Shown: in pieces, positions 29,905 to 36,309 of the stretch | Position numbering within the stretch: the stretch's first letter is position 1 | Layout of the letters: each line of letters opens with the position of its first letter | Source: Mycoplasma sp. CAG:776 | Lineage (GTDB): Bacteria; Bacillota_I; Bacilli_A; RF39; UBA660 | Assembly: GCA_000438195.1 (NCBI GenBank) | Contig: FR903071.1 | Coordinates: 87,394 to 151,393 of the forward strand | DNA length: 64,000 nucleotides | Direction: 5' to 3' | Notes under the pieces: generated by a model | What the model saw: the letters and a program-made list of their open reading frames with translations, nothing else | Told to the model about the DNA's origin: nothing | Databases searched by the model: none | Program-made: the position numbers and the translations under genes

Positions 29905-29991
29905 GCCTGTGTGGCGGAATTGGTAGACGCGCTGGACTCAAAATCCAGTGGTAGCAATATCGTGTCGGTTCGAGTCCGACCACAGGCACCA
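29905..29991 (+). tRNA. tRNA-Leu (anticodon CAA), with encoded CCA
   Basis: 7-bp acceptor stem GCCTGTG/CACAGGC, anticodon loop CTCAAAA, long variable arm, T-loop GGTTCGAGTCC. 87 nt. Confidence 0.9.
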
Positions 29992-30063
29992 GAGGGAAAT
30001 CTGCTCGAACCGAAAAGGAAGAGCTTTCGATAAATGTCAATTCTATAGGGAATTGATTTTTTT

Positions 30064-30360
30064 GTGTTAGAAAGTGAGAAGATTTTCATGTTAAAGGTTG
30101 TAAAACAAGAAATTGAAATGGAAGCAGCTCTTAAAAAGAAGTTAGAATTTATATGTAGTTTCTGTAATATTACTCCCATTATCCAAAATGGAAGTATTAG
30201 AAAGTTAGAACAAACTAACTTAATTTATGTAGAACCTCATAGAATTATCATCAAAAATATTACTTTACTTGCCTTTAATTATGAGAGTAATCTTTATATT
30301 GAAAATTTAAGTAAAAGTATTCCATTAAAAGAATTAGAAAATTTTATTAAAACACTATAA
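30064..30360 (+). CDS. Hypothetical small protein (98 aa) at island edge
   Basis: ORF only. Confidence 0.3.
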   Translation: MLESEKIFMLKVVKQEIEMEAALKKKLEFICSFCNITPIIQNGSIRKLEQTNLIYVEPHRIIIKNITLLAFNYESNLYIENLSKSIPLKELENFIKTL

Positions 30361-30584
30361 AAAAACATGCACATCAATTCCTTATCTCCCATTTTACCTG
30401 GATTTTTTCTAAAAATTAGGAAAGAAAAATTATCATAACTTTACCCATAGACAAAACTAGATGTTTTGTTAAAATAAGTATGCTAGGAAAAAATATAATG
30501 ATTTCCACTTATTTAGATAACACAAACTATTTGTCTTGTGTTATTTTTTTATACTTTAAATGGATAGAAAGGATGATGTGATGA

Positions 30585-32488
30585 ATGAATGAAGAAAAGA
30601 AAATTTGTGGAATATATACTCGTGTAAGCACGGAAGATCAAGCTCGGGAAGGTTTTAGTTTACCAGAACAAAAAGAGAGATTAGAGGCTATGTGTAAATA
30701 TAAAGGTTATGAAATGATTATTATGAAGATGCTGGAATTAGTGCTAAAAATGGAAATTATAGATCAGAATTTGACCGAATGTTAGAGGATATCAGAAATA
30801 AGAAAATAAATACCATTGTTACATTAAAACTAGATAGATTAACGAGAAGTGTTTATGATTGGGAAAATATTATGAAATTTTTAGAAGAAAATCATGCTTA
30901 TTTAGATTGTGCTAATGATGAAATTAATACAACCAATGCAAACGGTAAATTAGTTTCAAGACTTCTTATGAGCGTAAGCCAAAATGAAATAGAGAGAACA
31001 AGTGAAAGAACTAAAGTAGGACTTGTGGGAGCGATTAAAAGTGGTAATATCCCCTCTCATACTCCTTTAGGATATAAAAGAAATAATAAAAAGTTAGTTC
31101 CTAATCCTCTTACAAAAGATATTGTTATCAGAATATATGATTTATACTTTAAAGGAAATAGTTATCAAAAAATAGCTAATATTTTTAATAAAGAAAATGT
31201 TTGTAATAAAAAATGGAAAGATAGTACTATATTAAAAATTATAGAAAATCCTGTTTATAAAGGAGATTTTATTCATGGAAAAAGAACTGCTCACCCAACC
31301 TATTATGAAAACGTCGTAGAACCTTTAATTAGTAAAGAATTATGGGAAAGTTGTCAAGTTCAAAAGAAGAAAAATTCCAGAAGTTACATGCGATATAATA
31401 CTTATCTTTTTTTACAAAAATTAAGATGTCCTAAATGTAGCAGAATTATGGGTGGTAGAGCCACCTATAAAAAGAAAAATGATACAGTATACTACTATTA
31501 TAGTTGTAATAATTGTAAGAACTTTATTAAAGAAGAACCGATAGAAAAAGCAATTCTAAACTTATTAAGTGAGATATTAGAGTATGATTCTGTCGTTGGA
31601 AGTTTTTTCTTACCTATGTTAAAAGCTAAATTAGATAATCCTAAAGAAGAATTATCAAAAGAATTAAAAGTACTAGAATTAAAAAAGGAAAGAATTAGAA
31701 ATGCTTATATTAATGAAGCATTTACTTTAGAAGAATATAAAAAAGAAAGTGAAATTATAGATAACAATATAAGAACTTTAGAACAAAAGATTTTAGAAAC
31801 TGACCAACTTGAAGAATTAAGATTTACTAAAGAAGATATTTTAATTAAACGAGATATTGATTTTATTAATAAAATTAAATTACCTAATCTTTACAAACAA
31901 ATTGTGATTACTTGGAAAGATTTAACGAGAGAAGAAAAAGCAAATCTTATTATGAATTATATTGAAGATATTTCTCTTATGGAAGTACCAAATGGAGAGT
32001 ATATAGTAACCAATGTTAATTTTAGAAGTACTTTCTTTAAAAATTTTAATGACCTTTTTAATGAAGGTTATATCGATAAAACACTATATAGAATAGATGA
32101 AAATGGTGAAGGCTTTGTTCGATATTCTAATTATTTACCTGCTGAAAAAGTGAAAGAACACATTATCAGATTAAGTGAGTTTTATCAAGTTTATTATTAT
32201 GAGGGGCAATATGATTTTGATACAAAAATTTTATCTGGTGAAAAACTAGATAATAGCGAAATAGTAAGAATATTCCCCTTAGAAAAAAATAAGAAAAAAG
32301 AAGGTAAAATTAATATAGGAATGATTAGTGCAATCAATATTAATGAAACAAAATTAAATGATTTAGAAGATTTATTTTATACACTCCCTCATAAAATAAA
32401 TTTATCCTATAACAAAAAGAAATTAAATGAAAATACAAAACTATTACCTCATCAAAATTCTAATATGTATCTTAAACTATCAAACTAA
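30585..32488 (+). pseudogene. Large serine recombinase (resolvase/invertase N-domain plus recombinase and zinc-ribbon domains), interrupted by a -1 frameshift near 30715
   Basis: N-terminal [23 protein letters not shown] (catalytic Ser region) in ORF 30585..30785. Continuation [26 protein letters not shown]..., [10 protein letters not shown] and [10 protein letters not shown]...YYYSCNNC in ORF 30779..32488, shifted by one nt. Confidence 0.7.
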
Positions 32489-32726
32489 CTCTCCTAAATT
32501 TTTCTTTTTTTCTCATTTTTACAACTTTAAAAATTAAACAGGATATGATGTTTGCACCAGTTAAAAGAACCAACCCTTATTTTATAAGACTTTTTCTTTT
32601 ATTTTACTGGTGCCATTTTATTTTTGCACTTGCAAAAATAGATATAATTATATACAAAGTATATTACCTTTTTTAAAAAAAGCTAGGTAAATACTGATTT
32701 AATTTGTATTACTTTTTTATATAATT

Positions 32727-33173
32727 TTATTTTTTACTTTTCCCACAAACAGCACTCATTGAAATATGAAACTCTTTACAAAATTTATATAGATTGGAAG
32801 TAGAAATACATATAAGACCTTTTTCGTATCTAACAATACATGCTTGTGATACACCTAACAAGTCAGCAATATTTTCTTGAGACAAATTATGTTTTAGTCT
32901 AACTGCTTTCATATTATTACCTAATCTTTCTAGGTTCAATCCTTTATTTATTTTTGTGTTACGTTCATTTGTTAAACCAAGAACATAATCTATACTATAT
33001 TTAAAATAATCTGCATAATCACATAAGTTTTTAAGTGGAATAATGTTAATTCCTAATTCCCATAATGAATATGTAGAACGATTTACTTTTAGAATATTTG
33101 CCATTTTCTCTTGGCTAATGTCATTATCTTCTCTAATATCTTTTAATCTTGAAAAATCTATCATATACTTCAC
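32727..33173 (-). CDS. Tandem-HTH XRE-family regulator (island-encoded)
   Basis: Two XRE HTH units (ISQEKMANILKVNRSTYSLWE; LSQENIADLLGVSQACIVRYE). Confidence 0.7.
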   Translation of the reverse strand: MKYMIDFSRLKDIREDNDISQEKMANILKVNRSTYSLWELGINIIPLKNLCDYADYFKYSIDYVLGLTNERNTKINKGLNLERLGNNMKAVRLKHNLSQENIADLLGVSQACIVRYEKGLICISTSNLYKFCKEFHISMSAVCGKSKK

Positions 33174-34569: not shown

Positions 34570-34722
34570 AGCAAAAACTCCTTTCTTTTAAGTTAGAAAT
34601 ATATTATACTCTATGATCATTAGTTTTACAATATTAATATATCATATTTTTTTTTTTTTTTAAAGCCAAATGTTTAAACTTTAAAAAATTTTATTATTTT
34701 TTACACTACATCATAATTTTGT

Positions 34723-34800
34723 GTTAAAATATTATTAGATTTGAGATTTATCGACCTATTTTAATCTTAAAGGTTCTAAATAGGCTACTCTCTCGCACCA
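34723..34800 (+). repeat. 78-bp direct repeat, copy 1 (upstream of fic)
   Basis: Near-identical to 36047..36124 (2 mismatches). Ends in ...tctcgcacca. Confidence 0.6.
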
Positions 34801-34953
34801 AATTGAATTTTACTCAAAATTTTGAGTTATTATTGCACAATAATTGTGCAAAAAGCATATTTTTTTTATAAAAATGCACATTATTTCATAGATATTGTGC
34901 GTTTTTCTTTACTTTCTAGACTGAATATAGTAATATATTAAGGAGGTGAGAAA

Positions 34954-36033
34954 ATGGATCCTATAAAAGTTAAAAAATTACCACTTGAATATAAACTAGA
35001 TAAAGAGTTAATGAATTTGATTTCAGAAGCTAATTTAAAATTTGGAGAATACAAATCAAATTTAAAAAACAGTCAATTTGATTCAAGATTTTTTTTAGAC
35101 TCTATTATTTTAAGTGAAAGTTTAAAATCAACACAAATAGAGGGTACTCAAATTTCACAAGATGATATGTATTATTTAAAATATATGCCTAAAACAGATG
35201 ATAATTTAGAAATACAAAACTTAAAAAAGGTAATTGATTTTGCCAAAATGCATTTAAAAGATAATCATAAAATTGATATTAAATTCATTAATGATATTCA
35301 TAAGATATTATTAAATAGTGTTCGTGGAAATGAAAAAGATCCCGGGCATATTAGAACTACTCAAAATTGGATTGGCCCAAAAGGCTGTACGATTGAAGAA
35401 GCAACATTTATTCCGCCTATACCAGAAGAAGTTCCAATTTTGTTAAACAATTTATTTGAATATATGAATGATGCTTATGTTGATCCTATATTTATCAATT
35501 TGGCAATATCTCATTCACAATTTGAAACTATACATGCTTACTGTGATGGTAATGGTAGACTTGGTAGAGCACTCATTCCTGTTCAATTAGCTCTTTTAAC
35601 CGAAGAAGAACCAATTTTATTTTTATCAGAAGTAATTGAATTATATAAGCCTACTTATTATAAACTTTTAAACGAAAGTAGAAAAGGCAATATGTTGGGA
35701 TTTATAAAGTTTTTTTTGCAATGTATAATTGATCAATGCAATAATTATATTGCAAAAATAAATAGAATTAACCAAATTTATAATAAAGATATGGAAAAAA
35801 TTAAAATATTAAAAAGTAATGCTGTATATCGGATTATGCCTGCCATTATGAGACAAATTGTTTTTACAAAAAAAGAAATCGTAGAAGAGTCATCAGTTTC
35901 TAGAAATACTGTGTCTATATTAATAGACAAATTAGTAGAATTAAATATTTTAGAACCAGATTCTAATTATGCTAAGTTAGGTTATAGATACAATGAAATT
36001 TATAATGTCTTTGTGGGGAAAGATATGTCATAA
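34954..36033 (+). CDS. fic: Fic/Doc family protein (class II, with N-terminal inhibitory SxxxEG motif); AMPylase-type
   Basis: Fic motif HAYCDGNGRLGR. N-terminal STQIEG matches the (S/T)xxxE(G/N) inhibitory helix. 359 aa. Confidence 0.85.
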   Translation: MDPIKVKKLPLEYKLDKELMNLISEANLKFGEYKSNLKNSQFDSRFFLDSIILSESLKSTQIEGTQISQDDMYYLKYMPKTDDNLEIQNLKKVIDFAKMHLKDNHKIDIKFINDIHKILLNSVRGNEKDPGHIRTTQNWIGPKGCTIEEATFIPPIPEEVPILLNNLFEYMNDAYVDPIFINLAISHSQFETIHAYCDGNGRLGRALIPVQLALLTEEEPILFLSEVIELYKPTYYKLLNESRKGNMLGFIKFFLQCIIDQCNNYIAKINRINQIYNKDMEKIKILKSNAVYRIMPAIMRQIVFTKKEIVEESSVSRNTVSILIDKLVELNILEPDSNYAKLGYRYNEIYNVFVGKDMS

Positions 36034-36046
36034 AAATTTAAAGTAT

Positions 36047-36124
36047 GTTAAAATATTATTAGATTTGAGATTTATCGACCTATTTTAATCTTAAAGGTTT
36101 TAAATAGGCTACTTTCTCGCACCA
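36047..36124 (+). repeat. 78-bp direct repeat, copy 2 (downstream of fic), running straight into the 25-bp island-boundary repeat
   Basis: See copy 1. Confidence 0.6.
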
Positions 36125-36309
36125 GAGGGAAATAGCCTCGAACTATTCGAATTTTAATATATAGAAATCAATCGAAATGATTGATTTTTATCGTTATTAT
36201 CTAATGTTTTTCTTGATTATTTAAATAAATTAAGTTACAGTATACATTTTTATTTATTAATGAAAAAGACCAATTGTAGCAGTTGGTCTAATCGATAAAA
36301 TATAGTTTG

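Follow-up and report, generated by a model that had tools for sequence, protein, structure and literature searches.

Known integrative arrays and the tRNA-Leu locus

The closest described counterparts of the locus considered here are the islands at ssrA in Dehalococcoides. In these islands, a serine recombinase is encoded in a module beside attL, the 3′ end of the tmRNA gene is the target, and the units lie in tandem stacks (McMurdie et al. 2011, PMC3146451). Some of the units are without an integration module and were interpreted as cis-mobilizable (PMC3146451). The locus described here is part of a 64,000-nucleotide stretch of DNA from Mycoplasma sp. CAG:776 (contig FR903071.1, positions 87,394 to 151,393; hereafter the window), in which the gene for a large serine recombinase (LSR) and the gene for a Fic protein follow a tRNA-Leu(CAA) gene. 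The original prediction was a single island of about 6.1 kb bounded by 25-bp imperfect direct repeats, with the accretion of two elements or an unusual attachment site offered as alternatives. The locus is most probably composed of three units of one LSR family, denoted E1, E2, and E3, which are stacked at the CCA end of the tRNA gene and are each bounded by the 6-bp sequence GCACCA. On this reading, the annotation of the locus is corrected from one island with 25-bp repeats to three stacked units with a 6-bp core. The locus resembles the Dehalococcoides islands in the position of the serine recombinase by attL, the use of the 3′ end of a tRNA-like gene, the stacking of units, and the presence of units without an integrase. 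In Dehalococcoides, a 20-bp repeat of the target 3′ end is found, a crossover in the T-loop was inferred, and there are two Ccr-like recombinases (DsiA and DsiB), whereas here 6 bp of the tRNA gene are repeated, the crossover appears to fall within ACCA, a single LSR is accompanied by a small conserved open reading frame (ORF), and the host belongs to the low-GC gut Bacilli.

Composites of the staphylococcal cassette chromosome elements (SCC and SCCmec) are driven by the LSRs CcrAB and CcrC. A conserved gene provides the 3′ end at which they are assembled, newcomers occupy the gene-proximal position, and recombinase-less pseudo-SCC units are bounded by the same short site. The present locus is likewise an LSR-driven composite at the 3′ end of a gene and includes recombinase-less units. 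SCCmec integrates at the protein gene rlmH (orfX), its direct repeats measure about 15–18 bp, and its recombinases are of the Ccr family, whereas the target here is a tRNA gene and the repeat is 6 bp. The identity of the present LSR to known LSRs, at most about 31–34%, refers to annotated phage and plasmid collections, which did not include staphylococcal chromosomes, the home of the ccr genes. Part of the likeness to SCC is taken from the discussion in PMC3146451.

Tandem accretion has also been described for streptococcal integrative and mobilizable elements (IMEs), of which the accreting and the tRNA-targeting ones have tyrosine integrases, and the serine integrases of streptococci mostly disrupt protein genes (PMC5357655). 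The E2 unit of the present locus resembles the streptococcal accretions of cis-mobilizable elements (CIMEs), ICEs (integrative and conjugative elements), and IMEs in that a recombinase-less unit with the att sites of its neighbor is held at one shared site. The CIME concept, as known for ICESt1 and ICESt3, is that of a recombinase-less unit flanked by the att sites of a neighbor. Classical tRNA islands of the Islander or P4 type are similar to the present locus in their use of a tRNA 3′ end, in the location of the integrase gene by the tRNA gene, and in leaving that gene intact. They possess a tyrosine integrase and a displaced tRNA fragment of 15–50 nt, whereas neither is found here and 6 nt are repeated. 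No phage-integrase-type domain, as expected of a tyrosine recombinase, was found in any ORF of positions 29992–36124. According to the Islander paper (2014), no serine integrase was known to have a tRNA gene as its target (PMC4383910). A search of the literature for LSRs with tRNA genes as targets provided no direct description, and the ssrA islands were the nearest case. No description of the LSR family was found, but very large island catalogues exist, and the locus is explained by known principles.

The E1 insertion and its recombinase family

The tRNA-Leu(CAA) gene (29905–29991, + strand) was identified using ARAGORN. The gene is left intact, and its T-arm, GGTTCGAG, is located at 29967–29974; this arm and the last 6 nt of the gene would make up the left half-site on the chromosome. 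The 25-nt sequence GCACCAGAGGGAAATCTGCTCGAAC at 29986–30010 recurs as GCACCAGAGGGAAATAGCCTCGAAC at 36119–36143 with 22 of 25 matches, and the imperfect direct repeats reported beside tRNA-Leu are thus present. The three mismatches are adjacent (CTG vs AGC), and the left copy is composed of the last 6 nt of the tRNA gene and the next 19 nt. With a threshold of three mismatches, only these two copies occur in the window, and none was obtained in 100 shuffles. A third site at 34795–34819 has GCACCA and scattered bases in common with the repeat, for an overall identity of 68%.

Metagenome contigs from the same species were gathered by exact-protein look-ups, and 23 contigs were read. Strains differ in whether they contain a segment of 4,809 bp, E1 (29992–34800, + strand). 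It was found in 15 of the 23 contigs, and in the other eight the PAP2, tRNA-Leu, and fic genes are directly adjacent. The window was compared with contig L001, which is without E1, using blastn. Positions 24001–29991 are matched at 99.7% identity and positions 34795–42000 at 99.2% identity, and the two matches overlap in GCACCA only. The tRNA end of L001 reads ...CCACAG GCACCA AATTGAATTTTAT, and this right-hand sequence is denoted arm b. In the window, arm b is found directly after the GCACCA at 34795. The attL of E1 (S1; 29986–30010, + strand) reads tRNA/GCACCA/GAGGGAAATCTGCTCGAAC, with the core at 29986–29991 followed by the left (P′) arm. The attR reads ...AGGCTACTCTCTC/GCACCA/b, in which the right end of E1, denoted R73, is joined to the core S2 at 34795–34800 (together 34722–34800, + strand). 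The empty site, tRNA/GCACCA/b without E1, is present in L001, L003, and L008, and the comparison with related genomes that had been proposed to define attB therefore provides it. E1 is a discrete insertion.

Since GCACCA is the only sequence common to the two E1 junctions, the crossover repeat is 6 bp, which fits a serine recombinase, and the absence of long direct repeats, which had been taken as normal for LSRs, is borne out at these junctions. The fic gene and the repeat at 36119 are kept in both strain forms, with or without E1, and the repeat at 36119 was therefore not made by the arrival of E1. The strains with the empty site lack 29992–34800 only. The 25-nt repeats are thus not the bounds of one 6.1-kb island, and they are not a target duplication from such an island. 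The GC contents of E1 and E2 are 25.6% and 24.9%, respectively, relative to 23.6–26.1% for the flanks, and the region is not set apart. The suggested check of GC against the flanks therefore gave no contrast for E1 or E2, and no compositional signal of foreign origin was detected in the base composition of the array relative to its flanks.

The LSR gene is a pseudogene (30585–32488, + strand) that is composed of an ORF of 66 aa at 30585–30785 and an ORF of 569 aa at 30779–32488, with a frameshift near 30714. The Resolvase (PF00239), Recombinase (PF07508), and Zn_ribbon_recom (PF13408) domains were identified using Pfam. The catalytic motif reads YTRVSTEDQ, with the serine at residue 15. The closest homologue, P0001, is intact, has 635 aa, and is 93% identical; it is encoded at the same tRNA-Leu junction in contig L011. 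Relative to L011, four nucleotides (ATAT) are missing from the window within GAAATATATGAT. The identical deletion is present in the independent contig L002, and the same split into 66 and 569 aa occurs in all other E1-bearing contigs listed. The break is a fixed frameshift mutation and not a sequencing error. The recombinase is thus located at the tRNA-proximal end and is frameshifted, as had been predicted. Programmed frameshifting was considered and rejected, since four nucleotides have been deleted from an (AT)n run that is complete in the intact homologue and there is no slippery heptamer. E1 is probably immobile in this genome now, its LSR being inactivated.

A database search provided many full-length LSR homologues of 600–660 aa with identities of 59–77%. 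The best matches in annotated phages and plasmids have identities of at most 31–34%, and none covers 80% of the protein. These phage and plasmid matches cover no more than about 74% of the LSR, and the best of them end near residue 470. The C-terminal portion of about 160 aa (window ~32000–32488) may be specific to the family.

The intact members of the family that were examined (L011, L012, L015, and L216–L219) contain the left arm, followed by a hairpin with a T-run, an ORF of 90 aa, and the LSR gene. The left arm is located 3′ of tRNA-Leu(CAA) in L011, and the same arm is also found in L012. The junction in L015 (LSR 75% identical) reads ...CATCC GCTCCA GTGGAAATTCTGCTCGAAC. Its left side looks like a tRNA-Gly 3′ end, in a partly N-masked stretch in which no tRNA was called by ARAGORN. 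In L216 and L217 (LSR 75% identical), the target is tRNA-Leu(GAG) and the junction is ...CCTT GCACCA GAGAAGAATCTGCTCGAAC. In L218 and L219 (LSR 62% identical), the target is tRNA-Leu(TAG) and the junction is ...CACTC GCACCA TTAAAGAATTTGGTTGAAC. Contig L020, on which the LSR gene is not present, reads tRNA-Leu(CAA) GCACCA TTGGGAAATCTGTTCGAAC and continues into an ORF similar to the small ORF of E1 (orf98, described below), where the contig ends. The 19 nt after GCACCA recur beside other tRNA genes and therefore belong to the element family; by these alignments they are assigned to its conserved left (P′) arm.

A conserved right (P) arm abuts the core at the far end of the family elements, as in AAGAGTTCAAAATAGGCTCTTTTATC/GCACCA, with the motif GTTCAAAATAGGCTC...TC/GCACCA. 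The right arm and core were located at 16259 in L012, 17871 in L217, 14162 in L218, and 15173 in L015, where the core is GCTCCA. The sequence AAGGTTCTAAATAGGCTACTCTCTC/GCACCA at the right end of E1 (R73) fits the P arm of the family. Junctions of the form P-like arm/GCACCA/P′ arm with no tRNA gene nearby were observed at 9059 in L012 and in L171, and the site in L012 adjoins an arm that is not from a tRNA gene. From these junctions away from tRNA genes, tandem arrays of the LSR family therefore seem common. A scan with the 15-mer GCACCAGAGGGAAAT returned 120 loci, almost all of which are chance matches in unrelated DNA; L171 alone looked related.

These findings suggest that uncultured gut Bacilli harbour an abundant and uncharacterised family of LSRs. 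Integration takes place at the CCA end of genes for tRNA-Leu and tRNA-Gly, a niche that is usually ascribed to tyrosine integrases. As tools for genome integration, LSRs are of practical interest when their target is defined, short, and nearly universal.

The E2 and E3 units and the origin of the array

The E2 unit is a recombinase-less cassette of 1,324 bp (34801–36124, + strand) that contains arm b, the fic gene, the right end R73′, and GCACCA. Arm b (34801–34953) comprises hairpins similar to those of a tRNA flank and the promoter region of fic. The fic gene is found at 34954–36033 (+ strand), and R73′ (36046–36118) is followed by the core S3 (36119–36124). No recombinase ORF is present in E2, its right end, in which the P arm is included, is 97.5% identical to that of E1, and GCACCA is found at both sides. 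The repeats that flank fic, previously given as 78 bp, are present as 79 nt with 97.5% identity (34722–34800 vs 36046–36124), or as 102 nt with 88% identity when extended. A degenerate tRNA fragment was considered as the source of R73 and rejected, since no alignment to the tRNA gene was obtained for the bases upstream of the GCACCA copies at 34795 and 36119.

The cassette stands apart from its flank in L016, a contig of a metagenome-assembled genome from a sister species in which the LCP, PAP2, and Fic proteins are 91%, 77%, and 98.9% identical to those of the window, respectively. At the DNA level, positions 34795–36133 (1,340 nt) are 99.4% identical between the window and L016, whereas the flank on the tRNA/PAP2 side is 86.6% identical. 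The block of high identity starts at one GCACCA and ends 9 nt past the next. The sequence after the cassette in L016 reads GCACCA/GAGGGAAATGAAGTGGCTTC, the part after the core being denoted arm c, and in L019 the same sequence is located directly 3′ of the tRNA gene. E2 thus adjoins arm a′ in the window, as described below, and arm c in L016. E1 is absent and E2 present in L001, L003, and L016, and E2 is absent from L019 relative to L016. From the sharp block of identity in L016 and the tRNA/c junction in L019, arm b, fic, R73′, and GCACCA therefore constitute a discrete insertion. We infer that E2 was mobilised by the LSR of another unit. A chimeric assembly behind L016 was considered and is unlikely: the shared junctions are only 12–15 nt in length, which is shorter than the k-mers of assemblers, and two exact switches would be needed.

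The protein encoded by E2 was assigned as a class II Fic protein of the SoFic type using PADLOC, PDB chains, and sequence motifs. The match to the PADLOC SoFic model PDLC03963 has an E value of 5.7e-84 and extends over positions 11–356 of 361. The solved SoFic chains in the PDB have 15–22% of the signal in common with it, at E values of about 1e-15. The motif patterns used were HxFx(D/E)GNGRxxR for the active site and (S/T)xxxE(G/N) for the N-terminal inhibitory motif. The inhibitory motif is STQIEG (residue 59), and the active-site motif is HAYCDGNGRLGR (residue 194), with Tyr in place of Phe. With both motifs located, the earlier assignment to class II is upheld. The protein is a candidate for a SoFic-type single-gene anti-phage defence. 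It has the full-length model match and the class II architecture of the SoFic system, and it is packaged here as a 1.3-kb att-flanked cassette. Such a cassette without a recombinase may illustrate one way in which single-gene defence systems can move between species.

The right-hand copy of the 25-nt repeat (36119–36143, + strand) is composed of the core S3 and a relic left arm, denoted a′. This arm is part of E3, a relic of about 76 nt of a left end (36125–36200, + strand) that contains an arm and a hairpin and has no element body. The blastn match of positions 36119–36200 to the tRNA-adjacent left end of the element in L020 extends over 83 nt with 83% identity and includes the arm and the hairpin. 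By this match, 36125–36200 is taken to be the stub of an older family member. Together, R73′ and a′ form a near-perfect inverted repeat, AGGCTACTTTCTC/GCACCA/GAGGGAAATAGCCT, for which the DNA fold has z = −2.8. Judged from its sequence, S3 is an attP-type (P/core/P′) junction of the kind expected between stacked units, and S2 (R73/GCACCA/b) is the same kind of junction. No fourth att site and no right end of E3 were found in the window when all GC[AT]CCA sites were inspected and the P arm was searched with up to three mismatches, and nothing recognisable was found in the long intergenic segment at 38806–39763.

Accretion, one of the two alternatives in the original prediction, is thus essentially right, although the count is three units (E1, E2, and the ~76-nt E3) rather than two. 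The other alternative, an unusual attachment site, applies in a limited sense, in that integration is at a tRNA gene's CCA end. In the proposed mechanism, E3 would have arrived first, followed by E2 and then E1. The attP of each new circle (P arm/GCACCA/P′ arm) would recombine with the tRNA side of the array. The recombinase would read the T-loop motif GTTCRAG about 20 bp to the left of the crossover and the mirrored motif CTCGAAC about 20 bp to the right, strand exchange by an LSR dimer would take place within ACCA, and the very different right half-sites (b, a′, and c) would be tolerated. An occupied site would stay a usable target, such that newcomers would insert beside the tRNA gene and older units would be pushed outward. 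E2 would be moved by an LSR supplied in trans, by which a SoFic-type defence gene would be spread.

The arrangement of the sites is consistent with this mechanism. At attL, the T-arm of the tRNA gene, GGTTCGAG, and the element arm sequence CTCGAACC are inverted repeats located about 20 bp on each side of ACCA. In L218 the two sides are changed together: the tRNA gene has GTTCAAG and the arm has GTTGAAC. S3 has an inner inverted repeat, and its centre is the base on which the symmetry of attL is centred. The right half-sites b, a′, and c have little sequence in common, and recognition therefore seems to rest mainly on the tRNA half. For Ccr at orfX, recognition has been reported to rest mainly on the gene-side half. 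The outer GTTC motif of the P arm is about 4 bp further from the core than that of the other three arms. This offset recalls, as a lead only, the difference in spacing between attP and attB that is known for LSRs. A further proposal, which is tentative and on the whole unlikely, would treat the T-loop and ACCA of the tRNA gene as a fixed half-site. The attP would then be asymmetric, with the P arm alone shifted and with P′, B, and B′ all attB-like, and the tRNA-side junction would still be an attB after integration. The locus would thereby act as an integron-like landing pad that stacks units and passes recombinase-less defence cassettes, such as SoFic, between species.

Several observations weigh against the stacked-unit model and its mechanism. 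The T-loop half-sites are read from sequence symmetry alone, and no directionality factor was identified. Every copy of E1 that was examined is frameshifted, and its presence or absence could be the result of one old inherited insertion rather than of ongoing mobility. The junction of an E1 circle or tandem (a non-G base followed by GCACCAGAGGGAAATCTGCTCGAAC) was not found in the JGI metagenome contigs, a collection that may lack the organism, and the P arm with the core was not found in viral contigs. In L017, 118 nt similar to arm b (81% identity) are located beside tRNA-Leu and are followed by ordinary-looking genes without fic. The divergence of this sequence is about that of the core genome, and arm b could therefore be a native flank. 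No strain of the species with neither fic nor E1 was seen in look-ups on the PAP2, XRE-TM, and retropepsin proteins.

The last two observations also support an alternative in which arm b and fic are native chromosomal DNA and 36046–36200 is a solo attP-like relic. In this case attB and an attP-like site would flank fic in direct orientation, and an incoming LSR could loop fic out as a circle and carry chromosomal DNA between species. The genes that follow the b-like sequence in L017 are housekeeping-like, no strain of the species without fic was seen, and S3 is a near-perfect inverted repeat, as is a genuine attP. E2 may originally have been chromosomal DNA that was looped out between the tRNA site and such a downstream relic. 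However, the segment from b to R73′ in L016 has the 99.4% identity given above, relative to 86.6% for the adjoining tRNA/PAP2 flank, which means that b travels with fic, and the tRNA/GCACCA/c sequence of L019 is uninterrupted. This alternative, which differs from the stacked-unit model chiefly in the origin of E2 and not in its present behaviour, is improbable.

The island of the original prediction would be a 6.1-kb composite of E1 and fic that was inserted in a single step with duplication of 25 bp, the short forms being the result of a later internal deletion. The 25-nt repeats are highly significant relative to shuffles, stacked units can in principle be excised jointly, and within the species fic is never found without the right-hand repeat. 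However, the 19 bases outside the tRNA gene are the family's own left arm and are seen at other tRNA genes, and beyond the right-hand copy the match to the left end of an L020-type element extends for about 60 nt more. In L016, from which E1 is absent, fic is found with the same internal ends, and no more than 9 of the 19 bases of the arm are repeated. Both endpoints of the supposed internal deletion would also have to coincide exactly with GCACCA cores that are flanked by proper attL and attR arms, and a single composite insertion is very improbable. An ordinary duplication or homologous recombination as the source of the fic repeats, with an incidental similarity to the tRNA end, can be set aside as highly improbable, since RecA-dependent exchange could take place over a repeat of 79 nt with 97.5% identity but all boundaries of presence/absence and of high identity are exactly at GCACCA, the repeat contains the family-wide P arm, and the same architecture is found at four different tRNA genes.

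Other features of E1 and the surrounding genes

The left end of E1 contains a hairpin followed by a T-run (30037–30063, + strand; TCAATTC..GAATTGA TTTTTTT) that was read from the sequence. Alignment indicates that it is conserved in L011, L012, L015, L216, and L218, and it is probably a terminator behind the tRNA gene. It was not called by a consensus terminator scan; the stem has too few G-C pairs. The small ORF (30088–30360, + strand) has 90 aa, or 98 aa when read from the GTG at 30064 (orf98). An ORF of 90–91 aa is located directly upstream of the LSR gene in all of the intact members examined (L011, L012, L015, and L216–L219). No match to the small ORF was found in Pfam or PADLOC, and it could encode a directionality factor or a regulator. 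The start of this ORF (30082–30104) has 20 of 23 bases in common with part of the P arm in the right-end repeats (34758–34780 and 36082–36104). Local alignment gave this match a score of 31, relative to 15.8 ± 2.4 for shuffled sequences, and a score of 31 was reached by none of 1000 shuffles. The match may represent a recombinase half-site that overlaps the start of the ORF, or it may be due to chance.

The remaining genes of E1 are located between the LSR gene and R73. A double helix-turn-helix regulator of the XRE family (32727–33173, − strand) was identified from two stretches of Pfam HTH_3 (E = 4e-23) and is either cargo or a control gene of E1. It is followed by an ORF of 119 aa (33276–33635, + strand) with no family match in Pfam or PADLOC. 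The gene for a retropepsin-like aspartyl protease that ends in a SEC-C motif at its C terminus (33730–34332, − strand) is paired with a DUF5678 gene (34333–34569, − strand); both were identified using Pfam and are cargo of E1. The only matches of this pair in PADLOC are weak ones to PDC-M08B (E = 0.002), and the pair may be a defence or toxin–antitoxin-like pair. The gene content given in the original prediction is thus retained for the LSR, Fic, and the retropepsin-like/SEC-C protein with its partner, and it is revised for the two regulators, of which only one has a DNA-binding domain.

To the right of the array, the segment 36310–40500 encodes an XRE-TM protein, a DUF3781 protein, two GNAT proteins, and a DUF1706 protein. 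This segment is not common to L016, and synteny resumes at about 40548. The L217 element likewise has a DUF3781 gene among its cargo. The 36310–40500 block may be old, decayed island cargo. A second presence/absence polymorphism is located about 5 kb from the array. A gene for an MCM/AAA-like protein of 455 aa (~41262–42521) is absent from L003 and L005 and present in the window, L001, and L002, and a weak 32-nt repeat with 75% identity is found at its edges.

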